A DNA stretch of 38,410 nt from Actinomycetota bacterium (GCA_046744115.1 JBKOXW010000147.1:1-38410); one strand, 5' to 3'. Shown: positions 5,210 to 25,673, numbered from the stretch's first letter. The notes: generated by a model not told the origin, from the sequence alone. Program-made: numbers and translations.

Positions 5210-5331
5210 GCGGAAGGCTCCTCGGTCGCTGCGTAGCAGCGAGACCCTACGGTCAGCCGAGAGGCGCTCACCAGGTCGCGAGGCGGCAGGACCTCGCCAC
5301 TGGCGTGTATATGCCAGACCGACCCGGTCGG

Positions 5332-5508
5332 TCAGTCGAAGCGGGTGCTCGCACCGCCGATGAGCAGCGAGGCGAGGATCCCGAGCGGGAGGGTGCCGAC
5401 GTAGGACACCTCCTGGCCGAGGTTGCCGAGGAACAGCATGAGCAGCCAGGTGGCCGGGAACGTGGCGATGACGAACGTGACGGCGAGAATCAGCAGACCC
5501 CTGATCAT
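5332..5508 (-). CDS. Small hydrophobic membrane protein (58 aa)
   Basis: MIRGLLILAVTFVIATFPATWLLMLFLGNLG... has two hydrophobic segments. GGAAGGGA lies upstream of ATG 5508. Hairpin gaccgac-ccg-gtcggtc overlaps the stop. Confidence 0.5.
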   Translation of the reverse strand: MIRGLLILAVTFVIATFPATWLLMLFLGNLGQEVSYVGTLPLGILASLLIGGASTRFD

Positions 5509-5566
5509 GACTGTCCCTTCCGGTGGACGGCTGCCCGCAGCGTGATCCATAGAGGACGCTCGGCCC

Positions 5567-6541
5567 TCACCCGCCGAGGGTGAATCCCGTACGAGCGAGG
5601 CAGGTCGCGAGCAGGGCCGGGTCGATATTGCCGCCGGAGACGACGGCCACCGTCCGGCCAGCGGGCAGCCCGTCCCGCCGGGACAGGTAGGCAGCGGTGG
5701 TCACCGCGCCGCTCGGCTCCGCCACCAGCCGCGACTTCCGGGCGAGCACGCCGACCGCGTCCAGGATCTCCGCATCGGTGACGGTCACGATGCCGTCGAT
5801 CAGCCGCCGTAAGTGGGACAGGGTGAGCTCGGACAGCGGTGTGCGCAGCCCGTCCGCGACCGTCCGGTGCCGCTGCTGCTCGGTCCACGGCCGCAGCTCG
5901 CCGGCGAGCACGCTGTCCCGGGCGTCCGCGGCGAGCTCCGGCTCGACGCCGATCACCCGTGCCGACGACGCCAGCGCGCGCACCGCCACCGCGATGCCGC
6001 TGGCCAGCCCGCCGCCGCCGACCGGCACCAGCACCACCTCGACGTCGGGCAGGTCGGCGACGATCTCCATCCCCACCGTGCCCTGCCCGGCGATCACGTC
6101 GCGGTGGTCGTACGGCGGGATTAGCACCAGCCCGCGCTCCGCCCTCAACTGCTCGGCCCGGGCCAGCCGCTCGGCCGGCGGCACCAGCACGACCTCCGCG
6201 CCCAGCTGCCGGGTCGCGTCGATCTTGATCGGCGCGGCGACGTCCGGCATCACCACCACGGCCGGGATACCAAATGCGCGGGCTGCGTACGCCGCCGCCT
6301 GCGCGTGGTTGCCGCTCGAGTGCGTCACCACGCCGCGCGCCCGCGCATCGGCCGGCAACGCCGCGATCGTGTGGTAGGCGCCGCGGATCTTGAACGAGCC
6401 GATCGGTTGCAGGCTCTCCGGCTTCAGCCACAGCGGCCGGTCGGAGTCGGCCCACGGGCACGGCAGCAGCGGCGTGCGCACCGCTACCCGGCCGATGATC
6501 TCGGCGGCGGCGCGCACCGCGTGGACCGAGACGAGGTCCAC
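5567..6541 (-). CDS. PLP-dependent serine/threonine dehydratase (threonine ammonia-lyase / serine racemase-like fold type II)
   Basis: PLP-lysine motif PIGSFKIRGAY, glycine loop VPVGGGGLASG, 324 aa. Confidence 0.9.
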   Translation of the reverse strand: MDLVSVHAVRAAAEIIGRVAVRTPLLPCPWADSDRPLWLKPESLQPIGSFKIRGAYHTIAALPADARARGVVTHSSGNHAQAAAYAARAFGIPAVVVMPDVAAPIKIDATRQLGAEVVLVPPAERLARAEQLRAERGLVLIPPYDHRDVIAGQGTVGMEIVADLPDVEVVLVPVGGGGLASGIAVAVRALASSARVIGVEPELAADARDSVLAGELRPWTEQQRHRTVADGLRTPLSELTLSHLRRLIDGIVTVTDAEILDAVGVLARKSRLVAEPSGAVTTAAYLSRRDGLPAGRTVAVVSGGNIDPALLATCLARTGFTLGG

Positions 6542-6985
6542 TCAGCAGCTCCGTCCACTGTTGACACAGTCCACGACGCGCGCCGACCTGTCACCGTTGC
6601 CGCAGGTCGTGCCCGCTGCGGCCAGGCTCTGCTCAGTGGAGAACGCGTCGGTCGAGACGTTGCCGACGTAGTCGTGGACGTGGTGCGCGGCACCCGGCTC
6701 GCCCGGCGCGGTGATCATGTTGTCGGAGTTCCGGTGATCGGAGCGGCCGCACGACGACACGGCCGATCCGGTCGAGGCCGCCGGGCCGGGCTCGGGCGCC
6801 CGGTAGTTCGGCGAGACATCGCCGACATCGACGTAGTCCTCGGCCGACGGGACCGAACCGCCGCCATTCGCCGAGCTCGCGATCGTCAGGATGCCGGCGG
6901 CGAGCACCAGCACCACCAGCGCGGCCAACCCCCAGAGCAGCCACGGAGGCCACCGCCCGGTCGCGCGCCCGAACACCCGACTCAT
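6542..6985 (-). CDS. Membrane-anchored DUF1996-like protein, apparently C-terminally truncated
   Basis: N-terminal TM anchor, then SSCGRSDHRNSDNMITAPGEPGAAHHVHDYVGNVSTDAFST...TTCGNGDRSA, which matches the N-terminal signature of DUF1996. The ORF stops about 15 codons later, directly abutting the dehydratase GTG start. Confidence 0.55.
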   Translation of the reverse strand: MSRVFGRATGRWPPWLLWGLAALVVLVLAAGILTIASSANGGGSVPSAEDYVDVGDVSPNYRAPEPGPAASTGSAVSSCGRSDHRNSDNMITAPGEPGAAHHVHDYVGNVSTDAFSTEQSLAAAGTTCGNGDRSARVVDCVNSGRSC

Positions 6986-7044
6986 TCTGCTGCGGCAGGG
7001 GCGGGGGACGGAAGCTATGGAACGGGGGGCTTCGGTACGGCACG

Positions 7045-7785
7045 ATGGGTGAGATCAGCCGACGGGAGGACGACCTGGTGAGCGCGTGCGAGCGGGGCAC
7101 GGTGCTGCTGGGGGCACATGTGTTGCACGCCCTCGACCCCGACGAGACCCGGGACGTCGAGGCGCACCTGGCCGAGTGCGCGCAGTGCCGCGCCGAGCTG
7201 GCGGAGCTGGAGCAGGTGCGGGCGCTGCTGGACGAGGTGCCGCGGGAGGCGTTCCTGGAGGGGCCGCCCGAGGACGCAGACCTGCTGCTCGCCCGAACGC
7301 TTCGGCAGGCCGGCGCCGAGACCGCCCGCGGCACCCGCGTGCGGCTGATCTCCGGCATCGCGGCCGCCGCGGTCGCCGTCGTCGCGCTGGTCGGGGCGGG
7401 CGTGCTGATCGGCCGCGGCGCGGAGCCGGACGTGGCTGCCGGACCGCCGACGGCCTCGAGCCTCCCCACCCCTGTCGAGGGGACCCGGTTCGTCTCGGCC
7501 ACCGACCCGACCACTGGCGCGCGGCTCAGCGTACGGGTCGAGCCGGCGGCCGGCTGGGTCCGGCTCAACGCCGCGGTGCGCGGCATCGCGGCCGGCGAGC
7601 GGTGCCGGCTCATCGTGGTGGCCACCGACGGCGCGCGTGAGATCGCCGGGAGCTGGCTGGTCTCGGAGGCCGGCGCGCAGTCCGGCACCACGCTGGACGG
7701 ATCGGCGCTCGTCGCTCCGGACGACGTGGCCGCCGTCGTGGTGGAGAACGTCGAGGGACGCCAGTTCGTCTCCGCCGACGTGTGA
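7045..7785 (+). CDS. Zinc-finger (HxxxCxxC) transmembrane anti-sigma factor
   Basis: HLAECAQCRAEL ZAS motif, single TM segment ISGIAAAAVAVVALVGAGVLIG, extracytoplasmic C-terminal domain. Confidence 0.8.
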   Translation: MGEISRREDDLVSACERGTVLLGAHVLHALDPDETRDVEAHLAECAQCRAELAELEQVRALLDEVPREAFLEGPPEDADLLLARTLRQAGAETARGTRVRLISGIAAAAVAVVALVGAGVLIGRGAEPDVAAGPPTASSLPTPVEGTRFVSATDPTTGARLSVRVEPAAGWVRLNAAVRGIAAGERCRLIVVATDGAREIAGSWLVSEAGAQSGTTLDGSALVAPDDVAAVVVENVEGRQFVSADV

Positions 7786-7791
7786 CGCGCC

Positions 7792-8334
7792 GTGCCGCCA
7801 CGCGCCCGCCGGGGTGCCGCCGATCAGGCATTGATCCGGTCGCTCTACGACGAGCACGGCCGGGCGTTGCTGGCGTACGCGACGCGGTTGACCGGTGACC
7901 GCTCGGACGCCGAGGACGTGGTCCAGGAGACACTGCTGCGCGCCTGGCGCAACCCGAGCGTGCTGGCCGACGCGGAGCGCTCGCCCCGCGGCTGGCTATT
8001 CACCGTCGCCAGGAACATCGTGATCGACCGGGCCCGGGCGAAGGCGGCCCGACCCACCGAGGTCCCCGAGTCGCCGTCGAACCAGCCGGTCTCGCGCGAC
8101 CACTCCGACGCCGTGGTCGACTCGCTCACCGTGCTGGAGGCGCTGAACCAGCTGTCCAAGGACCACCGGGACGTGCTGGTGGAGATCTACTTCCGCGGTC
8201 GCACCGTCAACGAGGCGGCCGAGATACTCGGGATTCCACCCGGGACGGTGAAGTCGCGCTCGTACTACGCGCTGGCCGCGCTGCGCGACTTCTTCGGCGG
8301 GCGCGGGCCCGCGCTGGACGGCATGACCGTCTGA
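7792..8334 (+). CDS. ECF-type RNA polymerase sigma-70 family factor
   Basis: Region 2 DAEDVVQETLLRAW and region 4 HRDVLVEIYFRGRTVNEAAEILGIPPGTVKSRSYYAL. Exact start is uncertain. Confidence 0.9.
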   Translation: MPPRARRGAADQALIRSLYDEHGRALLAYATRLTGDRSDAEDVVQETLLRAWRNPSVLADAERSPRGWLFTVARNIVIDRARAKAARPTEVPESPSNQPVSRDHSDAVVDSLTVLEALNQLSKDHRDVLVEIYFRGRTVNEAAEILGIPPGTVKSRSYYALAALRDFFGGRGPALDGMTV

Positions 8335-8361
8335 TCCGGACGGTCCGCCGCTGGTGTCCTG

Positions 8362-8886
8362 TCAGGACCCGGTGGCCCCGTCGATGCGCTCGCGCAGCAG
8401 GTCCGCGTGGCCGTTGTGGCGCGCGTACTCCTCGATCATGTGCAGGTAGACCCAGCGGACCGAGATCGGGCCGCCCTCGCGGCCCTCGCCGAACGTGTCG
8501 TCCGGGTCGGCGCCGGCGACGGCGGCCCGGATCTCCGCACATGCCTGCCGGTACGTGGCGAACATCGCCTCCGGGTCGGCCGTGTCCACGTCGTCGAAGT
8601 CGCCCTCCGGGTTCTCGTCGCTGTAGTACAGCGGCGGCACCTCCCGGCTGGCACGCCCCGCCACCCCGCGCAGGAACCAGCCACGCTCCACATCGGTCAG
8701 ATGGCGGACGAGGCCCAGCAGCGAGAGCGTGGACGGCTCGCACGATCGGCGCCGCAGCTGCTCGGCGTCCAGCCCGGCGCACTTGTTCAGCAGCGTGGCG
8801 CGATGGAACTCCAGCCACTCGTCCAGCATCGTCCGCTCGTCGGACACCCTCCGCGGGTCGGTTCTCGGGACCTCGGGCGCAACCAT
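8362..8886 (-). CDS. DinB-superfamily protein (DUF664 / mycothiol-transferase-like)
   Basis: DERTMLDEWLEFHRATLLNKCAGL, LLGLVRHLTDVERGWF, HMIEEYARHNGHADLLRERIDG. GGAGG lies 8 nt upstream of ATG 8886. Confidence 0.85.
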   Translation of the reverse strand: MVAPEVPRTDPRRVSDERTMLDEWLEFHRATLLNKCAGLDAEQLRRRSCEPSTLSLLGLVRHLTDVERGWFLRGVAGRASREVPPLYYSDENPEGDFDDVDTADPEAMFATYRQACAEIRAAVAGADPDDTFGEGREGGPISVRWVYLHMIEEYARHNGHADLLRERIDGATGS

Positions 8887-16335: not shown

Positions 16336-17118
16336 ATGACTCTCTACCCGTACGCGGGGACTCTCGTTACGGTCGGCAGCGTGCCGGAGACTCACTTCGA
16401 CGAGTGGATGGCCGCGCGGTACGCGACCTTGTGGCCGGAGCTGTTCGATCCGGCGGTGGTGGACCCGGCCGTGAGCTTCCTCGCCGAACTGGCGGCAACG
16501 GGGCCCGCCCTCGAGTTCGGCATCGGCACCGGGCGCATCGCCATACCACTGAGCCGTCGGGGAGTGCGCGTGCATGGGATCGAGCTGTCTCCCGCGATGG
16601 TGGAACAGCTCGACGCGCAGCCGGGCGGCTCCGACATCGGCGTGACCATCGGCGACTTCGCGACCGCCGACGTGGGCGGTCCGTTCGCGCTCGTCTACCT
16701 GCTGCGCAACACGATCACAAACCTGACCGCGCAGGACGAGCAGGTCCAGGCGTTCCGCAACGCCGCAGCGCACCTACAACCTCGCGGCTGCTTCGTCATC
16801 GAGAACTACGTCCCGCAATTACGGCGACTTCCTCCGGGCGAGACCACCCACGTCTTCACTGCGACGCCCGGCCATCTTGGCTTCGAGGAGTACGACGTCG
16901 CGTCCCAGATCGCGGTGTCCCATCACTACTGGACGATCGAGGGCCGGCTCAGGACGTTCTCCTCGCCGCACCGCTACGTGTGGCCGTCCGAGCTGGACCT
17001 GATGGCGCGCCTGGCCGGACTGAGCCTGCGCGAGCGGTGGGCCGACTGGAACCGCGCCCCGTTCACCAGCGAGAGCCGCGGTCACGTCTCGGTCTGGGCG
17101 AAGCCACCGCGCCCGTGA
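16336..17118 (+). CDS. Class I SAM-dependent methyltransferase
   Basis: SAM motif ALEFGIGTGRIAIPL, followed by HGIELSPAMV and LQPRGCFVIE. Start is uncertain (ATG 16336 or GTG 16381). Confidence 0.8.
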   Translation: MTLYPYAGTLVTVGSVPETHFDEWMAARYATLWPELFDPAVVDPAVSFLAELAATGPALEFGIGTGRIAIPLSRRGVRVHGIELSPAMVEQLDAQPGGSDIGVTIGDFATADVGGPFALVYLLRNTITNLTAQDEQVQAFRNAAAHLQPRGCFVIENYVPQLRRLPPGETTHVFTATPGHLGFEEYDVASQIAVSHHYWTIEGRLRTFSSPHRYVWPSELDLMARLAGLSLRERWADWNRAPFTSESRGHVSVWAKPPRP

Positions 17119-17189
17119 TCGTTCGCTGCTATCGTCCGCTGCGGTCGACCGCTCGGCGGAAGCCGCGGGAGGGCAGAGGGTTGCGGACC

Positions 17190-18248
17190 GTGAGCGGGCA
17201 CGACACCGGCTCGGCGTCGCTGCGGATCGCTGTCGTCTCCTCGCCCTGGTTCGACGTGCCGCCGGACGGCTACGGCGGGATCGAGCGGGTGTGCTTCCAC
17301 CTGGTGGAGGGGCTCATCGACCGCGGCCATGACGTGACGCTGATCGCGAACGGCGCGGACCGCACCCGCGCCCGGTACCTGCCGGCGCTGCCCGAGCTGC
17401 CGTACGGCCTCGGCGGCATCGAGGGTCCCGCCCAGGAGGTGCGGTACGCGGCCGCCGTCGCCGAGGTGCTGACCAACGTCGACGTGCAGATCGTGCACGA
17501 CCACTCGCTGGCAGGCCCGCTGCTCGGGCGGGGGCGTGCGGCGCCCACTCTGGTGACTGCACACGGCCCAACGGACGGCCACATCGGCGACTACTACCGC
17601 CGGCTCGGGCTGCCGATCGTGGCGTCCTCGGATGCGCAGCGCCGCATCGCACCTGACCTCCCGTGGGTGGGCACGGTGCCGAACGCCCTCGACGTGCGCG
17701 ACTACCCGTTCCGCGCCGACAAGGACGACTACCTGCTCTTCCTCGGCCGGCTCTCCCCCGAGAAGGGCGTCCACGTCGCGGTGGACGCGGCCCGCGCCGC
17801 CGGCTCCCGGCTCGTGATCGCCGGTAAGTGCGCGGAGCAGCACGAGCAGCGCTACTTCGCCGAGTTCGTTCAGCCGAGGCTCGGCGCGGACACCGAGTTC
17901 GTCGGTGAGGTCGCCGACACGCGGCGCACCGACCTGCTGGCCCGCGCGCGGGCGCTGCTCGTGCCGGTCCAGTGGGAGGAGCCGTTCGGCCTGGTCTCCA
18001 TCGAGGCATTGGCCTGCGGCACGCCCGTGGTCGGGCTGCGACGTGGGGCGATCCCCGAGATCGTCGACGATGGCCGGACCGGCTGGGTGTGTGACGATCC
18101 CGCCGACATGCCCGCCGCGATACGTCGGCTGGACGAGATCGACCCTCGCGACTGCCGGGCGGCGGCCGAGCGGCGCTATCACACCACCGTGATGGCCGCC
18201 GCGTACGAGCAGATCTACCGGCGCCTCGTTCATGCGACCGCCGGGTGA
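17190..18248 (+). CDS. GT4-family (GT-B fold) glycosyltransferase
   Basis: N-terminal RIAVVSSPWFDVPPDGYGGIERV. C-terminal EPFGLVSIEALACGTPVVGLRRGAIPEIVDDGRTG (E-x7-E region). Start is GTG 17190 or TTG 17181. Confidence 0.85.
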   Translation: MSGHDTGSASLRIAVVSSPWFDVPPDGYGGIERVCFHLVEGLIDRGHDVTLIANGADRTRARYLPALPELPYGLGGIEGPAQEVRYAAAVAEVLTNVDVQIVHDHSLAGPLLGRGRAAPTLVTAHGPTDGHIGDYYRRLGLPIVASSDAQRRIAPDLPWVGTVPNALDVRDYPFRADKDDYLLFLGRLSPEKGVHVAVDAARAAGSRLVIAGKCAEQHEQRYFAEFVQPRLGADTEFVGEVADTRRTDLLARARALLVPVQWEEPFGLVSIEALACGTPVVGLRRGAIPEIVDDGRTGWVCDDPADMPAAIRRLDEIDPRDCRAAAERRYHTTVMAAAYEQIYRRLVHATAG

Positions 18249-18257
18249 GGCGGGCGG

Positions 18258-19103
18258 ATGTCGCTGCCCGACTGGCTGCCTCCGCGGGTCGACGGGCCGC
18301 TTGCCCGGAACGGCTACGCACTGGTCACCGACCTGGAGAGCCCGGCATACGCGAAGATCATGCGCGCACTGGAGGGATATCAGGCGGCATTCCTCGGCCG
18401 GACCCGCGAGCAGTGGGGAGATCACTTCCCGATTCCCGGCGACGCGCTGGCTCACTTCGGGCGCCAGTGGGAGTTTCCGTACGCCTGGGCCAACCTCGCG
18501 CCGGTGCGCGGCCGACTGCTGGACGCCGGCTCCGGCATCACGTTCTTCCCGTTCCTCTTGGCGACGGCCGGCTTCGAGGTCCACTGCTGTGACGAGGACA
18601 GCAGCCTCGGCCTCGCCGCGCGATACCGCCGTGCCGCCGCCCTCACCGGATGCCGCGTCACGTTCACCGAGGCGTCGCTGACCGACCTGCCGTACCCGGC
18701 CGGGAGCTTCGACGCGGTCGCGTGCATCAGCGTGCTCGAACACGTCGGCGCCGCCCGGCTGGAGATCATCACCGCGCTGGTGGAGATGCTTCGGCCGGGT
18801 GGACGGCTGGTCCTCACCTGTGACGTCGACCTGCGCCGTGAGGGCGGGCTGACCGTGGAAGATGTCGGGGCGCTGCTGGCCCACCTGGACGAGTCGTGCG
18901 ACCTGCTCTTCCCGCTCGACCTGCGTCGGCCAGGTCAGCTCCTGACCAGCGAGACCGTGCTTGCGTCGGCGCCGTGGCGGCTGCCCTGGCCGTGGCGACC
19001 GCCGGTGGGACCGGCGACCGCGCCGGCGGTAGGCGGCTGGCGCGACGAGTTCCGGTCGATCGCACTGCTGGGCGTCACCGCCGAGAAGCGGCACCCCCAC
19101 TGA
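18258..19103 (+). CDS. Class I SAM-dependent methyltransferase (second, unrelated copy)
   Basis: LLDAGSGITFFPFLLA, FDAVACISVLEHV, LRPGGRLVLT. Starts 9 nt after the GT4 stop. Confidence 0.75.
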   Translation: MSLPDWLPPRVDGPLARNGYALVTDLESPAYAKIMRALEGYQAAFLGRTREQWGDHFPIPGDALAHFGRQWEFPYAWANLAPVRGRLLDAGSGITFFPFLLATAGFEVHCCDEDSSLGLAARYRRAAALTGCRVTFTEASLTDLPYPAGSFDAVACISVLEHVGAARLEIITALVEMLRPGGRLVLTCDVDLRREGGLTVEDVGALLAHLDESCDLLFPLDLRRPGQLLTSETVLASAPWRLPWPWRPPVGPATAPAVGGWRDEFRSIALLGVTAEKRHPH

Positions 19104-19125
19104 TCATCGGCGATACGCTGATCCG

Positions 19126-22100
19126 ATGAGGTTGTTCGGCTGGCTGCGGCGCCGCCGAGAGCCGCCGCCGCGCCAGCCGAGCACGGCCGACGCCGACCTG
19201 GAGCGGTTCTTCACCGACGCCGAGGACGCGCGCCGTCGCTTCGACCTGCTGATCTCCGCCGACCGGCCGGCGAAGCAGATCGTGGTCATCCACGGCATCG
19301 GCGCGGTCGGCAAGTCGAGCCTGCTCCGCATGTATCGGCTGTCCTGCCGGCGCCACCAGCGACCGGTCGGGCTGGTCGGCGCCGAGGAAGCTCCGTCCAG
19401 TGTAGACATTCTCGACCGGTGGACCGCCGACCTTCGCGCGGACGGCGTCTCGATGTCGGCGGTCACGTCGTCGCTGGTCCGCTATCGCAAGCTCCTGGCG
19501 AAGGTCGAGGAGACCGCGCGCCGCGCCGGGCAGGACCAGGAGACTGCGGCCGCGGCGCTGACCACCGCCGCGGCGAAGGGCGTCGTGAAGGTGGCCGCGA
19601 GCGCCATCCCGTTCGCCGGGCTGATCGTCGATGCTGTCGGAGGCGAGGCGGTGGAGGCGGTGCTCAACGTGCTGCGCGCCTCGCTGTCCAAACCGGACTT
19701 CGATTTCTTCCTCGACCCCACCCGCCGGCTGACCGACGACTTCCTCGCCGACCTGGGTTCTGCCGCCGACCGGCGGCCGGTGCTGATGCTCGACACGTAC
19801 GAGCAGGCCACCGCGCTCGGCGACTGGCTGCGCGATCTGGTCCAGCGACTACCCGAGCCCACTCTCGTCGTGATCGCGGGACGGGTGATCCCCGAGTGGG
19901 ACCGCGCTTGGCAGGGGTGGATCGGCCGGGCCGAGATCATCGAGCTGACCGAGATGTCCGACGCCGACGTCCAGCGGCTGGTGCAGCAGTACTACGCACT
20001 GTTCGGCCGGGGGGAACCGGACGCCGACCATGTACAGACGGTCGTGCGGTTCGCCCGCGGTCTTCCGCTGGCCGCTACCACCGCCGTGCGCCTCTGGGTG
20101 AACCATCAGCTCACCGACCTGCAGCCGCTGGGCCAGAGCGCGGTGGCCGAGCTGGCGGACCGGTTGCTCGAGGGCGTGCCGGCCGAGCTGCGACCGGCGT
20201 TCGAGGCCGCGGCGGTGCTCCGCTTCTTCAACGCCGACTCGCTGGCAGCGCTCCTCGGCACCGACGGCAAGGCCGAGTACGACGAGCTGCGGCGCTGGCC
20301 GTTCACCCGGCCGAGGCGGGAGGGCCTTGCCGTTCACGACACGATGCGGGAGGTCATGAACGACGCGCTCCGAGCCCGGTCTCCGCACCAGTTCCGCGCA
20401 TACAACGAGGCCGCCGCGGCACACTACGCGGCGCTGCTGGCCGAGGCGAGCAGCGACGAGCGAGACCGGTTGCGGCTGGAATGGCTCTACCACTCGATCC
20501 GAGCCGACGAGAGGGCCGGCCTGCGCAACCTCCAGGAGCTGGCCGACGAGCTGGTCCGCTACCAGGTGGTGGGCAGGCTGCGAGCGTTGGTGAACGACGC
20601 CAGCAGCTACCCGCTCCAGGAGGAGAACAGCCGGCTCTGGCGGCGCTACTACGCCGCCCGGCTCGACCACCTGCAGGGCATGACCGCCCGCGCCGAGGCC
20701 GAATACCGCGCGATCGGCGACAGCGAGGACGCCGAACCGCGGCTGCGTGCGTACGCGTTGTGCGACCTCGGGACGATTCTCGTCTCGCTGGAACGGCTGG
20801 CCGCGCCAGACGGCGAGCGGCGCGCGGTGGACGTCATCGAGCGCAGCCTGTCCGCCTGGCCCCTGGACGCCAAGCTCGTCGCGAACCACGAGAGCCTGAT
20901 GAACGTCAGCAATGCGCGGGCGGACTGGCAGGAAAGCCTCGAGCACCTCCGGCCGATGCGCGAGCATGCCGAGTCCACCGGCGACAGCTTCGCCCTGATC
21001 ATGACGGACCGGCACGAGGCCGCCATCCACGCCCTGCGCGGCGACTGGCGCGGATACCTCACCGCGCGCCGGCACTACGAGGCGGCCGTCGCCGGGCTCG
21101 GCGACGTGCCCGCGTTGCGCATGCACGTCGCCTACTTCACCTGGCCGCTGGTCTACATGGGCCGCTACCGCGAGGCCCAGATCTCCAGCGAAGAGGCCCT
21201 GACGCTGGCCGTCCGGCTCGAAGAGAAGGAGCTGATGGTCACCGTGCTGGAGAGCGTCGGGCTTGCCCTCGGGATGCAGGAGGCGTACCCGCAAGCCGCG
21301 GAACGGTTCGGCGAGGCGTGGAACTTCTACGAGAACTTCCACGTCCCGGCGGCGACGGGGGAGACCGGTGCGGCCGACCGCTACGTCCGCGCGATGCTGA
21401 GCTTCCGCGGGCTGGTCGCGCTGCGGGCCGGCCGGCTGGACCAGGCCGACGCCGACCTGCAGCGGGCGCTGGACATCAAACGGCGGATCCGGGACCGGAT
21501 CGGCCTGCCGGAGGTGCACGCCTGGCGCGGCCAGCTGCACGAGCAGCGGGACGAGCCGGCGGCGGCCGAGGCGGAGTACCGCGAGGTTCTCGGCCTCGGC
21601 GACGTCGGCCGTGTCTACTTCGAGGCGACCGCCCGGGCCGGACTCGCCCGCCTGCATGCCGCCCGACACCGGGACCAGGAGTGCGCCGACCAGCTCGCCG
21701 CCGCGGAGCGCAGCGCCCAGCGGTACGAGTACAACGACCTGCTCGCCGCGCTCCGGCTGAGCCAGGCTCAGCTCGCGTGGGAGGGGCGGCTCGGAACGGA
21801 GGCGGGCTTCGACGCTGCGGCCGCCCGGTACCGGCAGGCGCTCGTGCACGCTCTCCGCTACAACCGGTTCGCCCTCGACGAGGTGCTCGGAGGACGGCCG
21901 GAAGGGACGCCGCTGCCCGCGGTCATTCCGTCCTGCCTGGAACGGGGCGACGAGGGCAACCGGATGCTGCACCTGTTGCACGAGTGGTGGCGGTCGGGCA
22001 CGAACGATGTCGAGCCCCCGCGGGAGGAGAGCATCACGCCACTGCCGGTGGGCGCCCCACTGCTCGAAGCCGAGCGCCTGGCGCGCACCCGGGAGCCGGG

Positions 22101-22167
22101 GTCGGGCGGGCCACAGCGGACCGTCCTCGAGCAGCTCGGGGCCGCGCTCGAGTCGCCACAGTCCTGA
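19126..22167 (+). CDS. STAND NTPase: NB-ARC-like P-loop domain with internal insertion, plus extended TPR-like helical repeat region
   Basis: Walker A HGIGAVGKSSL, Walker B PVLMLDTYE, TLVVIAGR, ARC-type GLPLA motif (FARGLPLAAT). About 600 aa of helical repeats follow. Only about 50 aa precede the P-loop. Confidence 0.8.
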   Translation: MRLFGWLRRRREPPPRQPSTADADLERFFTDAEDARRRFDLLISADRPAKQIVVIHGIGAVGKSSLLRMYRLSCRRHQRPVGLVGAEEAPSSVDILDRWTADLRADGVSMSAVTSSLVRYRKLLAKVEETARRAGQDQETAAAALTTAAAKGVVKVAASAIPFAGLIVDAVGGEAVEAVLNVLRASLSKPDFDFFLDPTRRLTDDFLADLGSAADRRPVLMLDTYEQATALGDWLRDLVQRLPEPTLVVIAGRVIPEWDRAWQGWIGRAEIIELTEMSDADVQRLVQQYYALFGRGEPDADHVQTVVRFARGLPLAATTAVRLWVNHQLTDLQPLGQSAVAELADRLLEGVPAELRPAFEAAAVLRFFNADSLAALLGTDGKAEYDELRRWPFTRPRREGLAVHDTMREVMNDALRARSPHQFRAYNEAAAAHYAALLAEASSDERDRLRLEWLYHSIRADERAGLRNLQELADELVRYQVVGRLRALVNDASSYPLQEENSRLWRRYYAARLDHLQGMTARAEAEYRAIGDSEDAEPRLRAYALCDLGTILVSLERLAAPDGERRAVDVIERSLSAWPLDAKLVANHESLMNVSNARADWQESLEHLRPMREHAESTGDSFALIMTDRHEAAIHALRGDWRGYLTARRHYEAAVAGLGDVPALRMHVAYFTWPLVYMGRYREAQISSEEALTLAVRLEEKELMVTVLESVGLALGMQEAYPQAAERFGEAWNFYENFHVPAATGETGAADRYVRAMLSFRGLVALRAGRLDQADADLQRALDIKRRIRDRIGLPEVHAWRGQLHEQRDEPAAAEAEYREVLGLGDVGRVYFEATARAGLARLHAARHRDQECADQLAAAERSAQRYEYNDLLAALRLSQAQLAWEGRLGTEAGFDAAAARYRQALVHALRYNRFALDEVLGGRPEGTPLPAVIPSCLERGDEGNRMLHLLHEWWRSGTNDVEPPREESITPLPVGAPLLEAERLARTREPGSGGPQRTVLEQLGAALESPQS

Positions 22168-22189
22168 CGATCCGACGAGGAGGGGCACC

Positions 22190-23164
22190 GTGGAGGGGGC
22201 CGAGGCGGACGCGGTGGCGACGGCGGCACGCGCCGGCGACGAGGCGGCGTTCGCTGCGCTGGTCGAGCGGCATCGGCGCGAGCTGCACGTGCACTGCTAC
22301 CGGATGCTCGGCTCGTTCGACGAGGCAGAGGACCTCGTGCAGGAGACGTTCCTGCGCGCGTGGCAGTACCGGGAGAGCTTCGACGGCACGTGGTTCCGCG
22401 CCTGGCTGTACCGCATCGCGACGAACGCGTGCCTCGACGCGCTCCGGCGCAACGCACGCCGGGTGCCGTCGCTGAGCTCGTTCGCCGACGTCCCGTGGCT
22501 GCAGCCGTACCCGGACCGGCTGCTGGACGAGATCGCGCCCAGCGAGGACGAGCCGGATGCCGTCGTCGTCGCCCGCGAGACCATCGAGCTCGCCTACCTT
22601 GCCGTCATCCAGCACCTGCCGCCGCGACAGCGCGCCGTGCTGCTCGTGCGGGACGTGCTCGGCTGGTCGGCTAGCGAGACCGCCACGGCGCTGGAGATCA
22701 GCATCCCCGCGGCGAACAGCGCGCTGCAGCGCGCCCGCGCGACGCTGCGGGAGCGGCTGCCGGCCGGCCGGATCGAGCCGTCCACAGTGGAGCCGACCGC
22801 GGAGGAGCGGGAGCTGCTCGCCCGGTTCATCGACGCGCACGAGCGGGCGGACGCGTCGGCGGCGGTCGCGCTGGCCCGCGAGGACATCCGGATCACGATG
22901 CCGCCGCACCCGTTCCTGTACGAGGGCCTGGAGTCGATCGCGCCGCTGCTGCAGGGTCTGACCGAGCCGGGGGAATGGCGGCTGGTGCCGACCGCGGCCA
23001 ACCGCCAGCCGACCGCGGCCAGCTACCTGCGCGAGCGCGGGGACACCGAGTTCCGCGCGTTCAAGCTCGACGTGCTGCGCATCGAGGGCGGCGCGATCGC
23101 GGAGATCACCACGTTTGGCGCCGGCCTGTTCCCCGCGTTCGGACTGGCGCCGACGTACCGATGA
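22190..23164 (+). CDS. ECF sigma factor with C-terminal NTF2/SnoaL-like extension (ECF41/SigJ-type architecture)
   Basis: GAGGAGG RBS before GTG 22190. Region 2 AEDLVQETFLRAW and region 4 LPPRQRAVLLVRDVLGWSASETATALEISIPAANSALQRAR. About 130-aa extension ending FKLDVLRIEGGAIAEITTFG. Confidence 0.85.
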   Translation: MEGAEADAVATAARAGDEAAFAALVERHRRELHVHCYRMLGSFDEAEDLVQETFLRAWQYRESFDGTWFRAWLYRIATNACLDALRRNARRVPSLSSFADVPWLQPYPDRLLDEIAPSEDEPDAVVVARETIELAYLAVIQHLPPRQRAVLLVRDVLGWSASETATALEISIPAANSALQRARATLRERLPAGRIEPSTVEPTAEERELLARFIDAHERADASAAVALAREDIRITMPPHPFLYEGLESIAPLLQGLTEPGEWRLVPTAANRQPTAASYLRERGDTEFRAFKLDVLRIEGGAIAEITTFGAGLFPAFGLAPTYR

Positions 23165-23191
23165 GTTTTGGCTCGCCCGAGGGTCTAGTCA

Positions 23192-23599
23192 GTGGAGACA
23201 TCTGTGCCGACCAAGATGGAGGGACACGTCGTGTTCGAGAACACCAAGGCGTTCAGCGGCTTCTCGGTGAACGACATACCGGCGGCCAAGAGGTTCTACG
23301 GCGAGACGCTCGGCCTGCGGGTGTCCGAGGAGAACGGCATGCTCACCCTGCACATCGCCGGTGACCGGGACATCCTGGTCTACCCCAAGGACAATCACAC
23401 CCCGGCGACGTTCACGATCCTCAACTTTCCGGTCGACGACGTCGACAAGGCGGTCGACGAGCTGACCGCGCGCGGCGTGCGATTCGAGCGGTACGAGGGC
23501 GTCGAGGCCGACGAGAAGGGGATCGTCCGCGGCGGCGGGCCGGCCATCGCGTGGTTCACCGACCCGGCCGGAAACGTCCTGTCGGTGCTCGAGATGTAG
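23192..23599 (+). CDS. VOC-family (glyoxalase/bleomycin-resistance fold) protein
   Basis: [21 protein letters not shown] and [15 protein letters not shown]. Confidence 0.85.
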
Positions 23600-23630
23600 T
23601 GACCCCGCGCGGCCGACAAGCGCGGTCGCC

Positions 23631-23659
23631 TTGACAAACAGAACTGTCGGTCATAGCCT
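23631..23659 (+). promoter_or_regulatory. Near-consensus promoter that would give a leaderless ArsR-family mRNA
   Basis: TTGACA (23631-23636) - 17 nt - TAGCCT (23654-23659). ATG 23667 lies 8 nt downstream with no SD sequence. Confidence 0.4.
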
Positions 23660-23666
23660 CGCCGGC

Positions 23667-24398
23667 ATGCTCGATGTGGCGGTGATCGAGGACCCGGCCG
23701 CGGCCGGGGTCTCGCTGGATCCGACCCGCGCCAGGCTGCTGGCGGAGCTGGCCGAGCCCGGCTCGGCCACGATGCTCGCGAGCCGGGTCGGCCTCCCGCG
23801 ACAGCTGGTGAACTACCACCTGCGCGAGCTGGAGCGGCACGGTCTGGTCGAGCTGGTGCAGGAGCGGCGGAAGGGCAACGTCACCGAGCGGCTGCTCCGC
23901 GCCACGGCGGCGTCGTACGTGATCTCGCCGGCCGCGCTGGCCGCGGTGCAGCCCGACCCGTCCCGCTCGCCGGACCGGCTGTCCGCGCGGTGGCTGCTCG
24001 CGGTCGCCGCCCGGCTGGTGCGCGAGGTGGGCGCGCTCATCACGGGCGCGACGAAGGCCCGCAAGCGGCTGGCGACGTTCGCCCTGGACGGCGAGGTGCG
24101 GTTTGCCTCCGCGGCCGACCGCGCCGCGTTCGCCGAGGAGCTCGCCGGCGCGGTCACCGCACTCATCGGCAAGTACCACGATGAGACGGGGGAGCGCGGG
24201 CGCAACCACCGCGTCATCGTCGCCGTGCATCCGACGCCGGCCCCGTCCACGGAGAAGGCGGAGGCGAGCGAGCCGACACCGTCGGCGGAGCCGACAGGGA
24301 CGACACCGTCGGCGGAGCCGACAGGGACGACACCGTCGGCGGGGCCGACAGGGACGACACCGTCGGCGGAGCCGACAGGGACGACAGGAACGACTTAG
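23667..24398 (+). CDS. ArsR-family winged-HTH regulator with repetitive Thr/Pro-rich C-terminal tail
   Basis: RARLLAELAEPGSATMLASRVGLPRQLVNYHLRELERHGLV. The tail carries (EPTGTTPSA) repeats. Confidence 0.8.
   Translation: MLDVAVIEDPAAAGVSLDPTRARLLAELAEPGSATMLASRVGLPRQLVNYHLRELERHGLVELVQERRKGNVTERLLRATAASYVISPAALAAVQPDPSRSPDRLSARWLLAVAARLVREVGALITGATKARKRLATFALDGEVRFASAADRAAFAEELAGAVTALIGKYHDETGERGRNHRVIVAVHPTPAPSTEKAEASEPTPSAEPTGTTPSAEPTGTTPSAGPTGTTPSAEPTGTTGTT
24270..24395 (+). repeat. 27-bp tandem repeat, about 4.7 copies, in-frame within the ArsR-family gene
   Basis: Unit gagccgacagggacgacaccgtcggcg at 24288, 24315 and 24342 (one A>G change), a variant last unit at 24369, and a shortened first unit at 24270. 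Confidence 0.9.
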
Positions 24399-24433: not shown

Positions 24434-25180
24434 ATGGGCCACGAGTTCGAGACCAGCCAGGAGATCACGGTCGACGCGACGCCCGAACAGGTCTGGGAGG
24501 CGATCGCCACCGGCCCGGGCATCGACTCCTGGTTCATGGGGCGGAACGAGGTCGTACCGGGCGAGGGCGGCTCGGTCCGGATGGCCCTCGGGGACATGGA
24601 CTTCCCCGCGTCCACGATCACCGTCTGGGATCCGCCGCGGCGGCTCGCGTACCGCGATGCCGAGGGCGAAGACGGCGCGTTCATGGCGTTCGAGTTCCTC
24701 GTGGAGGGACGAGCCGGCGGGAGCACGACGGTGCGGCTCGTGCACAGCGGCGTCCTCGGCGGCGACGACTGGGAGTCCGAGTACGACGCGCTGCGCAAGG
24801 GCGACCCGATGTACCTGCGCTCCCTGGGCACGTACCTCACCTACTTCCCGGGCCGGACCGCTGTGCCCGTCACGGCCTGGGCCGCGCCCCAGCCCAGCGA
24901 GGAGGGTGCCTGGGAGGGCATCAAGCGCGGCCTTGGCCTGACCGGCACGGTCAACGAGGGCGACCGGGTCCGGTTCGCGCTCGACGACGGCGCTCCGGTG
25001 GAGGGCGTCGTGGACTCGGTGCTCTACCCGAGCTTCCTCGGCGTGCGCACTGACGACGGGCTGTACCGGTTCGTCGGCGGGGGCGGCCAGATCGGGGTCG
25101 GCCACCACATCTTCGCGGACGTGGATCCGAAGGAGGCCGAGCAGGCCTGGCAGTCCTGGCTGACCAGGCTGTATGCCTAA
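24434..25180 (+). CDS. SRPBCC-superfamily (AHSA1/START-like) protein
   Basis: GAAGGAG RBS. ITVDATPEQVWEAIATGPGIDSWF. Classic pairing with an upstream ArsR-family gene. Confidence 0.85.
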   Translation: MGHEFETSQEITVDATPEQVWEAIATGPGIDSWFMGRNEVVPGEGGSVRMALGDMDFPASTITVWDPPRRLAYRDAEGEDGAFMAFEFLVEGRAGGSTTVRLVHSGVLGGDDWESEYDALRKGDPMYLRSLGTYLTYFPGRTAVPVTAWAAPQPSEEGAWEGIKRGLGLTGTVNEGDRVRFALDDGAPVEGVVDSVLYPSFLGVRTDDGLYRFVGGGGQIGVGHHIFADVDPKEAEQAWQSWLTRLYA

Positions 25181-25673
25181 GTCCATGTCCTACCCACAGG
25201 CCCGATACCACGGCGACACCGGACTGGCGAACGCGACGCTCCGACCGTCCGATCAGGATCCCGAGCTCCGGTACCCCTCCGGCGGCACAGTGCACTATCT
25301 GGCCACGGGGGCGACGACCGGAGGCGAGTTCGGCCTGTACCGGTGGGAGATATCGGCGGAGCCGAGCGGGCCGGGACCGCACTTCCGCAGGACGATCTCC
25401 GAGTCGTTCTACGTCCTGTCCGGATCGGTCCGCTTCTACGACGGCAACCGGTGGATCGACGGCACTCCGGGCGACTTCCTGTTCGTGCCCGAGGGCGGCG
25501 TCCACGGCTTCCGGAACGAGTCAGGCGAGCCGGCATCGATGCTGCTGCTGTTCGCACCCGGTGCCCCGCGCGAGGACTACTTCGAGACCCTCGCGCGGGT
25601 CGCCGAGGGCCTTGTGCTGACCGACGAGGAGAGGGCCGCGTTCTTCCTGCGCCACGACACCTACTGGGTCTGA
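25173..25673 (+). CDS. Cupin-domain protein
   Basis: GPHFRRTISESFYVLSG ... FLFVPEGGVHGFRNES. The start overlaps the SRPBCC stop by 8 nt. Confidence 0.8.
   Translation: MPKSMSYPQARYHGDTGLANATLRPSDQDPELRYPSGGTVHYLATGATTGGEFGLYRWEISAEPSGPGPHFRRTISESFYVLSGSVRFYDGNRWIDGTPGDFLFVPEGGVHGFRNESGEPASMLLLFAPGAPREDYFETLARVAEGLVLTDEERAAFFLRHDTYWV

Follow-up and report, generated by a model that had tools for sequence, protein, structure and literature searches.

A STAND NTPase of an unnamed family, with a dispensable hairpin in its nucleotide-binding domain, encoded together with a GT4 glycosyltransferase and a methyltransferase

The window considered here, a stretch of 38,410 nucleotides from an Actinomycetota bacterium, encodes a STAND (NLR-type) P-loop NTPase that is a full-length member of a large and so far unnamed family. 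As the best explanation of the data overall, we favour with moderate confidence a STAND switch that has a GT4 glycosyltransferase and a methyltransferase as its likely partners and a role that leans towards conflict. The family possesses a helical subdomain inserted between the Walker motifs of the NTPase, the tip of which is a flexible, uncharged and dispensable hairpin.

The gene occupies positions 19126..22167 on the plus strand, which also carries all other features described below. It runs from the earliest possible start codon to the stop and encodes 1013 amino acids comprising a NOD, a TPR solenoid and a conserved C-terminal cap. The third-position GC content of 0.91, which is that of a real gene in a window of 72% GC, the homologues, the AlphaFold (AF2) models and the Foldseek matches identify it as a genuine gene. 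As read from the sequence, all motifs of the nucleotide switch are intact. These are the Walker A motif or P-loop GIGAVGKSS (residues 57-65, 19294..19320), with G57, G59, G62 and K63 invariant in 67 aligned full-length homologues; the Walker B motif LMLDTYE (residues 220-226, 19783..19803), with D223 invariant and T224 and E226 at least 90% conserved; strand 4 with the sensor-1 arginine, TLVVIAGR (residues 246-253, 19861..19884), with A251 and G252 at least 90% conserved, and G252 and R253 invariant or nearly so in smaller alignments; the RGLPLA motif (residues 311-316, 20056..20073; GLPLA 312-316), with invariant G312, L313 and P314; and VHD, the MHD-type histidine motif of the winged-helix domain (residues 403-405, 20332..20340), in which H404 reaches at least 90% conservation and near which R408 is invariant. 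The conservation of the motifs and the insertion across the 67 homologues is far beyond chance. A preliminary description of this DNA had reported a protein of the same length, and the motifs that it quoted are all present at the positions given there; its estimate that ~155 residues separate Walker A from Walker B agrees with the 154 that lie between the two motifs (160 from Lys63 to Asp223). It had also noted an effector-less N-terminus of ~50 residues. The 56 residues upstream of the P-loop indeed consist of a disordered tail (residues 1-19) followed, in the AlphaFold model, by two helices of the nucleotide-binding domain (NBD), and therefore leave no space for an effector domain. The tail is poorly conserved, and neither an amyloid signalling motif of the BASS/Bell type in it nor a matching neighbour was found. 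A fused effector (nuclease, TIR, SIR2, protease and the like) was likewise absent from the protein, so that motifs, fold and domain searches back the earlier view of a STAND-type switch without an effector domain in cis.

The mean pLDDT is 87.9 for the full-length model and 78.4 for a model of the N-terminal part. Foldseek comparison of the latter delineates the NOD (residues 20-440, 19183..20445), composed of the nucleotide-binding, helical and winged-helix domains. The TPR-like solenoid (residues 441-860, 20446..21705) is all-helical, is modelled with pLDDT >90 and is the least conserved part of the protein, with column conservation of 0.35-0.50 over residues 561-800. A Pfam TPR_12 match at residues 755-822 (31 bits, cut-off 30.1) and the all-helical AF2 structure of residues 402-1013 bear out the ~600 amino acids of TPR-like helices recognized earlier. 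The C-terminal helical cap (residues 861-1013, 21706..22164), delimited by column conservation of about 0.6-0.65 over residues 841-1000, is conserved and belongs to no known family, searches of PDB and Pfam having returned no match. The best Foldseek match of the full model is the STAND-TPR protein PH0952 (6mfv, 2e-8), with MalT (8bob) also matched, whereas the N-terminal model matches the NB-ARC domains of Sr35, Roq1, NRC2, ZAR1 and Dark, together with MalT, PH0952 and Cdc6; for the NOD, E-values range from 5e-6 to 2e-4. Thus, the structural check on the N-terminal part that the preliminary description had proposed places it among the STAND proteins. The narrower label “NB-ARC” used there fits the motifs and the fold but not the profile: the protein has no match to Pfam NB-ARC at E <= 0.01 and, in the NOD, a sub-threshold match only to AAA_16, the relatives score at most 16 bits with NB-ARC (P0040; cut-off 23.5), and no Pfam, NCBIfam or PADLOC model covers the ATPase domain. 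Among the features of NB-ARC (PF00931), the GLPL motif and the MHD-type histidine are present, and the compact Walker A-B spacing is absent.

Several known systems share parts of this architecture. In PH0952 of Pyrococcus horikoshii (6MFV) and MalT (8BOB), as in the window protein, a NOD is followed by a TPR solenoid, and MalT is among the top six Foldseek matches for both models. However, sequence similarity to both is marginal (E = 0.04 for MalT with the family profile), and the window protein differs from both by an extra hairpin of 45 amino acids and a distinct C-terminal cap. It lacks the LuxR DNA-binding domain of MalT, the C-terminus being an unrelated helical cap; no GerE or other HTH or DNA-binding domain was found in it, and the TPR_MalT and WHD_MalT profiles gave nothing. 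The relatives match TPR_MalT below the cut-off of 45 bits (19-35 bits, otherwise given as 31-35) and WHD_MalT weakly. PH0952 likewise is not known to have a separate catalytic effector. With the NB-ARC/AP-ATPase clade (plant NLRs, Apaf-1/Dark, AfsR-type regulators), the window protein has in common GLPLA, the MHD-like VHD and the sensor-1 arginine, but it lacks a CC, TIR, CARD or DNA-binding N-terminus, and its Walker motifs are 160 amino acids apart. Antiviral STANDs (Avs, bNACHT) and the present family share a tripartite logic with a variable N-terminus, the relatives of the window protein carrying TIR, CHAT, PRTase-CE, hydrolase, TM or HTH elements on a conserved NOD and sensor. Unlike Avs and bNACHT, the window protein yields no PADLOC match, about 83% of the family lack any N-terminal domain, and a consistent defence-island context was not seen around the loci surveyed.

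The helical insertion lies between strands 2 and 3 of the NBD (residues ~106-197, 19441..19716, from AF2 and the spacing in homologues) and contains AF2 helices at residues 111-133, 136-150, 173-186 and 189-196. That the Walker A-B region is unusually long, as first proposed, is confirmed family-wide, with a spacing of 153-166 amino acids in 65 of the 67 members. The norm of 70-80 residues against which the insertion was originally measured applies to NB-ARC domains, where the spacing is about 75-85 amino acids, but not to the other bacterial STANDs compared, in which the motifs are already separated by about 107-118 residues. The special element is therefore a hairpin of ~45 amino acids rather than the whole 75-80. 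This dispensable module, defined by pLDDT and consensus, spans residues ~127-177 (19504..19656); the Ala/Val/Gly-rich hydrophobic stretch covers residues 149-179, and the uncharged Ala/Gly/Pro core of 21 residues (152-172) contains a near-invariant I-P-x-x-G turn (Pro 96%, Gly 92%). Apart from the protein termini, this is the only part with a pLDDT below 50, and AlphaFold cannot place the hairpin. The insertion site is presumably the one at which initiator/STAND AAA+ proteins carry an oligomerization wedge (ISM). Insertions likewise emerge between Walker A and Walker B in HslU (I-domain) and in Orc/Cdc6/DnaA (initiator-specific motif), and HslU and Cdc6/ORC are among the Foldseek matches of the NOD, but those insertions bind substrate or DNA, have no sequence kinship with the hairpin, and none is an uncharged Gly/Ala/Pro hairpin. 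We infer that the hairpin functions as a latch or as an element of an oligomer interface.

The hairpin is not a transmembrane segment. On the Hessa scale, its best 19-mer in the window protein scores +6.8 kcal/mol, as against -0.9 to -4.2 for the true TM anchors of relatives, and the hairpins of the family range from +3 to +15 kcal/mol (median +6.4). The preliminary description had drawn an analogy with KAP NTPases, in which a hydrophobic insertion also lies between the two Walker motifs; given the score of the window hairpin, this analogy fails. The arms lack the length needed to cross a membrane and contain too much Gly, Ala and Pro for it, the remainder of the domain is STAND-like, and a KAP-like membrane insertion was also rejected in the absence of a KAP_NTPase match.

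The hairpin has been deleted, at differing boundaries, in 14 of 200 members belonging to about nine lineages, in several of which the nearest neighbours still bear it. Most of the hairpin-less lineages have acquired a domain at the N-terminus (CHAT, PRTase-CE, hydrolase or HTH), such additions being found in 10 of the 14 hairpin-less members and 21 of the 186 hairpin-bearing ones (Fisher p = 1.3e-6, raw). These statistics ignore phylogeny, and p rises to 0.002 among divergent members (score < 450) and to 0.07 in the most divergent subset. Such a pattern would suit a self-contained NLR-like death or defence sensor in which the NBD hairpin is itself the effector and no separate one is needed; in a ligand-triggered oligomer, many hairpins would come together in a ring that acts on membranes or captures partners, a functional analogue of the alpha-1 funnel formed by plant CNL resistosomes. 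Besides the repeated loss, the strong conservation of an element that AF2 models with low confidence, the tethering of ten hairpin-bearing members to the membrane by N-terminal TM helices, a weak match of one member's hairpin to a glycine-zipper model and the lack, for most family members, of a conserved neighbour able to supply an effector are all in line with this explanation. We nevertheless consider it unlikely, since the hairpin is not membrane-spanning by its Hessa scores, the association with N-terminal additions, uncorrected for phylogeny, weakens in the most divergent subset, and hairpin and effector are not exclusive. Judged by sequence comparison, the inserted element as an output device has some comparative support from the repeated loss of the hairpin and its correlation with N-terminal gain, but is not established, because the hairpin coexists with TIR (P0204), NACHT (P0135), HTH and TM N-termini.

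At E < 1e-30 the family comprises at least 474 clusters (50% identity), mostly from Chloroflexota and uncultured Actinobacteria; at E < 1e-10 the number of clusters is 2,739. Among these, 89 full-length homologue clusters show 35-100% identity to the window protein (89 homologues are otherwise given as 35-69%). Recognized death effectors occur in five of 200 members (2.5%), where the same NOD is fused to CHAT (P0189, P0191), PRTase-CE (P0178), an alpha/beta-hydrolase (P0222) or TIR_2 (P0204). The C-terminal cap is retained in the four CHAT-, PRTase-CE- and hydrolase-fused proteins, and the TIR-fused one gave no cap match. Because relatives with the same sensor carry these N-termini, we lean towards a conflict or cell-death-type sensor over a housekeeping regulator. 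TPR-like sensors are present in most defence STANDs (PMC13581612).

Several observations speak against a role in defence. PADLOC matched no defence family in the window protein, and the 2.5% of effector-bearing members falls short of the 10% criterion of Lee et al. 2026 (PMC13581612). A search of phages, plasmids and IMG/VR returned no relatives. The neighbours of about 60 Chloroflexota-type loci include no recurrent partner; their 142 ORFs give only scattered defence matches (BrxA, DruE, REase, GajB-like). The window itself resembles ordinary chromosome, with no defence context seen in it.

Upstream of the STAND gene lie two conserved partners that had not been remarked on before. The first gene encodes a GT4 glycosyltransferase (17190..18248, starting at GTG 17190 or TTG 17181; Glycos_transf_1, 92 bits), and the second a class I SAM methyltransferase (MTase; 18258..19103, Methyltransf_11/25), with gaps of 9 nt between GT4 and MTase and 22 nt between MTase and STAND. 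We examined the cassette in the window and nine other loci (L030, L033, L110, L116-L120 and the P0028 contig). In all of them the three genes share one strand and the order GT4, MTase, STAND, are spaced by -11 to +96 nt and have differing flanks, and GT4 is adjacent in every examined locus of the window's clade. Ten further STAND homologues, outside the contigs examined directly, are linked to GT4 and/or MTase matches through contigs of identical length. The GT4-linked members, including the window protein, form one monophyletic clade of 25 leaves, and pairwise identities co-vary between STAND and GT4 (r = 0.79) and between STAND and MTase (r = 0.82). The MTase family is narrow, with 93 clusters, many on contigs with STAND homologues and none attributed to a cultured organism. 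These data show that GT4, MTase and STAND constitute a co-inherited, co-diverging and tightly packed three-gene operon in the window's clade. Since the STAND gene is the last of this operon, GT4 and MTase are the most likely signalling partners of its product. They are not the general output of the family, because most of its members, from Chloroflexota, have no GT4 or MTase neighbour. A further methyltransferase, similar to CcbJ (16186..17118; PDB 4hgy, E 1.7e-41), lies upstream of the conserved cassette in the window and is specific to the window; in L030, L033 and L117-L120 no such gene precedes the cassette.

Kaur, Iyer, Burroughs and Aravind (2021, PMC8195603) put GT4 domains forward as effectors in STAND conflict systems, where they are genetically coupled to STAND proteins as in the window. 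The window GT4, however, is encoded by a separate gene with a methyltransferase gene between it and the STAND gene, and it scores 92 bits with Glycos_transf_1 and 29 bits with the Pfam GT4-conflict profile (cut-off 26). Its nearest kin are small-molecule glucosyltransferases, an observation against a conflict effector: the best PDB match is the glucosylsucrose synthase 7fg9 (E 1e-57), and the enzyme is also close to BGluT and AviGT4.

A possible though doubtful alternative is that the protein is a metabolic or regulatory STAND of the MalT/PH0952 type without a role in conflict, which would sense a sugar-derived molecule and control the GT4-MTase pathway by protein contact; the pathway would make a methylated glucoside or a product resembling a compatible solute. 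The kinship of GT4 with glucosylsucrose synthase and with pteridine and antibiotic glucosyltransferases is consistent with this, and GT4 relatives (55-57%) on a Thermomonospora-attributed contig and in a Streptomyces MAG adjoin an MGH1-like/GDE glycoside hydrolase without a STAND gene, which favours the metabolic reading. The sensor and cap, moreover, are well conserved and not diversifying, PH0952 and MalT are the top structural relatives, and the window offers no defence context. On the other hand, the protein has no DNA-binding domain, the GT4/MTase neighbours are confined to a minor part of the family, and the presence of TIR, CHAT, PRTase-CE and hydrolase domains on the same NOD, with the cap in four of five cases, is unlike known metabolic regulator families.

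For the conflict-leaning switch that we prefer, fold and motifs lend good support to a nucleotide-switch mechanism, the steps of which can be proposed by analogy with MalT, PH0952 and NLRs. The ADP-bound protein would be a closed monomer kept shut by contacts between the NOD and the TPR region, and ligand binding at the TPR solenoid or C-terminal cap would open it. Exchange of ADP for ATP would then allow the NODs to oligomerize into a signalling hub, and the oligomer might recruit or activate GT4/MTase, or sense their methyl-glycoside product.

Downstream, an ECF sigma factor whose C-terminal domain is SnoaL_2 is encoded at 22190..23164 (TIGR02960 / PRK08241, about 372 bits), starting at GTG 22190 with the ribosome-binding site GAGGAGGGG. 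The sigma factor pointed out in the preliminary description thus exists, 22 nt from the STAND gene, on the same strand and with no terminator-like site between the two genes, and in L119 a sigma-70-type gene follows at a distance of 870 nt. Signalling through the ECF sigma factor, with the STAND protein serving, for instance, as its activator or as an anti-sigma-like partner, is nonetheless highly improbable. A sigma gene directly after the STAND gene is found in the window alone, being absent in the fetched loci of the clade and about 100 others, and the sigma carries its own SnoaL_2 domain. Sigma factors of this class probably regulate themselves and need no separate partner. The ECF sigma gene is a chance, lineage-specific neighbour and not a conserved partner, and the genes of its own likely regulon (glyoxalase, SRPBCC and cupin) come next.

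The gene at 19126-22167 on the forward strand runs from its first possible start codon to the stop over 1013 codons and has been taken as real, since its third-position GC of 0.91 is the signature of real genes in a window whose GC content is 69-77% throughout. All the motifs quoted in the preliminary description are found in its product, namely Walker A (GIGAVGKSS, residues 57-65), Walker B (LMLDTYE, residues 220-226), TLVVIAGR (residues 246-253), GLPLA (residues 312-316) and the Ala/Val/Gly-rich stretch (residues 149-179). The winged-helix domain contributes one more, a near-invariant VHD (residues 403-405) that corresponds to the MHD motif of NLRs. The claim that the protein carries no effector is also borne out: only 56 residues precede the P-loop, modelled by AlphaFold as a disordered tail and two helices of the nucleotide-binding domain, which leaves no fused effector. 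The gene product is thus a STAND protein of the NOD-TPR type with intact switch motifs and no effector in cis.

The ATPase domain of this protein escapes the available sequence models. Pfam searches yield TPR_12 above the threshold, AAA_16 below it and no match to NB-ARC, the NCBIfam and PADLOC models give zero matches, and PDB sequence searches with the protein and with a profile of the NOD return only marginal matches to the P-loop of ArsA and the winged helix of MalT. Predicted structure is more informative. The full-length AlphaFold model (67 homologues, pLDDT 87.9, pTM 0.73) has as its best Foldseek match in the PDB the STAND-with-TPR protein PH0952 (6mfv, E = 2e-8), with TPR proteins and MalT ranking next, and a separate model of residues 1-440 matches the NB-ARC domains of the plant NLRs Sr35, Roq1, NRC2 and ZAR1 as well as MalT, Dark, Cdc6 and PH0952. 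Judged from these models, the protein contains a STAND NOD with AP-ATPase-like motifs. At the level of sequence it is a clade of its own, its relatives giving only sub-threshold matches to the nSTAND5, NACHT, AAA_16 and NB-ARC models. A STAND or NLR-like switch with a TPR sensor is an already known kind of protein; the family itself is unannotated, its ATPase domain lying outside all Pfam, NCBIfam and PADLOC models.

A search with the protein identified 89 clusters with 35-100% identity, nearly all of about 1000 amino acids and aligning end to end, and an exhaustive search with the NOD profile extended this to 474 clusters (50% identity) below E = 1e-30 and to 2,739 below 1e-10. Filamentous Chloroflexota and uncultured Actinobacteria account for most of the family, which thus comprises at least 474 clusters: the closest relatives of the window protein come from soil-type metagenomes and Actinobacteria MAGs, and matches among the species-representative genomes searched are nearly all Chloroflexota MAGs. 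Searches of IMG/VR, of GenBank phages and of PLSDB plasmids turned up no relatives, and a mobile-element origin has been rejected on this ground. Conservation peaks in the NOD and in a 150-aa helical C-terminal cap (residues 861-1013), for which neither Pfam nor PDB searches found a relative, and reaches its minimum in the central part of the TPR solenoid. About 83% of the members lack an N-terminal domain, death-type effectors being fused in a minority; the cap is kept in those effector-fused relatives that were matched, so that the same kind of sensor is coupled to death-type effectors in the minority and to nothing in the 83%. With no effector in most members, how such receptors signal becomes a general question.

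The long insertion between the Walker motifs, proposed in the preliminary description as unusual for NB-ARC domains, is real, with 160 residues between Lys63 and Asp223, and a spacing of 153-166 residues in 65 of 67 members makes it a family trait. Its distinctive part is shorter than had been thought: in the data, 107-118 residues already lie from one Walker motif to the other in other bacterial STANDs, and 122-140 in hairpin-less relatives within the family, which leaves a hairpin module of about 45 amino acids. The inserted material is modelled as helices (residues 111-133, 136-150, 173-186 and 189-196), amid which the segment 152-172, the core of the hairpin, is the sole internal stretch of about 20 residues with pLDDT < 50. 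It consists of 21 uncharged residues with Glu on both flanks and has the consensus AASAIP-VVG-PLVGALGG, the Pro being conserved in 96% and the Gly in 92% of sequences. The suggested analogy with the membrane insertions of KAP NTPases fails, as the best 19-mer of the hairpin sums to +6.8 kcal/mol by the Hessa scale (with a median of +6.4 for the family), against -0.9 to -4.2 kcal/mol for the genuine N-terminal membrane anchors of some relatives, and no KAP profile is matched. The hairpin occupies what we take to be the site of the oligomerisation wedge in STAND and initiator AAA+ proteins, and would act as a latch or an interface in a protein that is presumably an ADP/ATP switch, oligomerising once a ligand binds the TPR solenoid or the cap.

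Among 200 members with a complete NOD, the hairpin, a dispensable part of the family-wide insertion, is kept in 186 and missing in 14. The boundaries of the deletion vary by lineage and the hairpin-less members are scattered, several of them being nearest to hairpin-bearing ones (for example, P0178 and P0059, with 56% identity); neighbour-joining and nearest-neighbour identities rule out a single sister clade. N-terminal additions of at least 60 amino acids are found in 10 of the 14 hairpin-less members (PRTase-CE, two CHAT, an alpha/beta-hydrolase, four XRE-type HTH, two transmembrane helices and one unknown) and in 21 of the 186 hairpin-bearing ones. In Fisher tests, none of them corrected for phylogeny, this association has a raw p = 1.3e-6, with p = 0.002 among divergent members (score < 450) and p = 0.07 in the most divergent subset. 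Hairpin and N-terminal addition do not exclude each other, since the hairpin is also present beside TIR_2 (P0204), a second NACHT-like STAND module (P0135), HTH, coiled-coil and transmembrane anchors. An intriguing minority view holds that the hairpin itself is the effector. On this reading, which seems improbable, an NLR-like receptor with no other effector would have its output device in the uncharged Ala/Gly/Pro hairpin inside the nucleotide-binding domain, and oligomerisation would bring many hairpins to the surface as a ring, able to damage membranes or to capture a host target. Once a conventional effector (CHAT, PRTase-CE, hydrolase) or an HTH had been gained at the N-terminus, a lineage could dispense with the hairpin, and its repeated independent deletion would be explained. 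Were it true, this would constitute a new way to wire an effector into the STAND ATPase core.

The sigma factor adjacent to the STAND gene, which had been put forward as a route for its output, proved not to be a conserved partner. It is an ECF sigma factor with a C-terminal SnoaL_2 fusion (22190-23164, forward strand; TIGR02960/PRK08241, ~372 bits); the ORF as called mechanically begins at 22007 and so overlaps with the STAND gene, the likely start being the GTG at 22190, which is preceded by the ribosome-binding site GAGGAGGGG and lies 22 nt past the STAND stop. Examination of more than 110 homologous loci by tblastn and in called-gene tables found no sigma factor directly downstream of the STAND gene outside the window, and sigma-factor coupling has been rejected accordingly. 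At locus L119 a sigma-70-type gene lies 870 nt downstream, and at L033 an ECF sigma gene is located about 4 kb away on the opposite strand. Downstream of the sigma gene of the window, in the same orientation, come genes for glyoxalase/VOC, SRPBCC (AHSA1) and cupin proteins (23192-23599, 24434-25180 and 25173-25673), which may be the regulon of this sigma factor.

In one clade the STAND gene has constant neighbours of another kind. In the window it is preceded by genes of a GT4 glycosyltransferase (17190-18248) and a class I SAM methyltransferase (MTase; 18258-19103), and the same three genes, in the same order and strand and with tight or overlapping spacing, are found at L030, L033, L110, L116, L117, L118, L119, L120 and on the contig of P0028, the genes flanking this cassette being different in every one of these loci. 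At L035 and L037 GT4 adjoins the STAND gene without the MTase, and 10 further STAND homologues, besides the contigs examined directly, are linked to GT4 and/or MTase matches by contigs of identical length. The cassette-linked STAND members form one clade of 25 leaves, to which the operon is specific, and the three genes co-diverge (r = 0.79 and 0.82); in this clade the two co-operonic enzymes would be the partners of the STAND protein. Outside it, all-against-all clustering of adjacent ORFs and Pfam and PADLOC scans of 142 neighbours revealed no recurrent neighbour, with the exception of PolX at four syntenic Chloroflexota loci, a case of local synteny that does not make PolX a family partner, and defence genes near these members are scattered only. 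The MTase family is narrow (93 clusters, 0 attributed to a cultured organism). The GT4 family is huge, its closest solved structure being the cyanobacterial glucosylsucrose synthase 7fg9 (E = 1e-57), and relatives with 55-57% identity on a Thermomonospora-attributed contig and in a Streptomyces MAG adjoin a glycoside hydrolase with no STAND gene, so that the GT4 family as a whole is not conflict-specific.

The fusions of other family members to TIR, CHAT, PRTase-CE and hydrolase domains tilt the interpretation towards a role in conflict or cell death, and a role as STAND effectors has been proposed for GT4 domains (PMC8195603). A metabolic regulator remains a serious rival, because recognised death-type effectors occur in only 2.5% of members, short of the 10% criterion applied by Lee et al. 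2026 (PMC13581612), the GT4 looks metabolic and defence context is lacking; if so, the family would be a modest addition to the MalT-like regulators. The dedicated glycosyltransferase-methyltransferase operon of one clade and the conserved hairpin in the ATPase, repeatedly lost where N-terminal domains appear, are two leads, either of which could uncover a new output mode for NLR-like switches. No description of a hairpin inside the nucleotide-binding domain, of its repeated loss or of a dedicated GT4-MTase operon has been found for any characterised STAND.

Several further observations concern the window and the homologous loci. Directly upstream of the cassette, a second methyltransferase (16186-17118, forward strand) resembles the celesticetin N-methyltransferase CcbJ (PDB 4hgy, E 1.7e-41) and is not part of the cassette at other loci. 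A scan of 15700-23800 for promoters and terminators found nothing and, at such GC content, is uninformative. Within 12083-14979 (forward strand), the mechanical 900-aa ORF 12277-14979 probably does not represent a single gene: codon-position GC points to a LuxR/GerE-type regulator in another frame (12083-13228), and the sole domain match of the long ORF is a ParA/MinD-like CbiA region near its C-terminus (aa 648-770). On the reverse strand, 8954-10657 encodes a 567-aa protein with a weak sub-threshold match (23 bits) to a putative T7SS secretion-signal domain. L001 is among the few loci with an obvious defence neighbour, a BrxA homologue (7061-7753; PADLOC, E 3e-38) located 245 nt upstream of the family member and after a 1655-aa ORF. 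At L117 a different STAND gene (8124-11411; adenylate/guanylate cyclase, AAA_16 and TPR, 1095 aa) lies about 360 nt 3' of the cassette STAND gene. L002, from a Thermoflexales MAG, contains a tandem same-strand pair of full-length paralogues (4881-7892 and 7977-10988), and the member at L006 (8001-10949, 37% identity) is located on a contig assigned to a Methanotrichaceae archaeon MAG, the explanation being either horizontal transfer to an archaeon or an error in binning.

Signalling through amyloid motifs (BASS) has been rejected, the N-terminus not being conserved and a Bell-type neighbour being absent. Two members combine the family NOD with a second, different STAND module, an N-terminal NPHP3_N/NACHT in P0135 (1402 aa) and a C-terminal nSTAND2 in P0113 (1236 aa), which hints at sensor-helper pairing between STAND proteins. 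In P0075, P0111 and P0113 (N-terminal ~100 amino acids), and also in P0181, P0190, P0210, P0220, P0223 and P0231, the N-terminus has in some cases a split zinc-ribbon (CxxC...CxxC) enclosing two transmembrane helices and in others two such helices alone; part of the family is thus membrane-tethered. Finally, P0055, P0060, P0063 and P0077 share a conserved N-terminal helical domain of about 95 amino acids (EDIEAQRELLRVYRRNLA.YLQQQAEQGG...YVTP.V.NGI.DARAEI), which matches no Pfam model and may be of the adaptor type.
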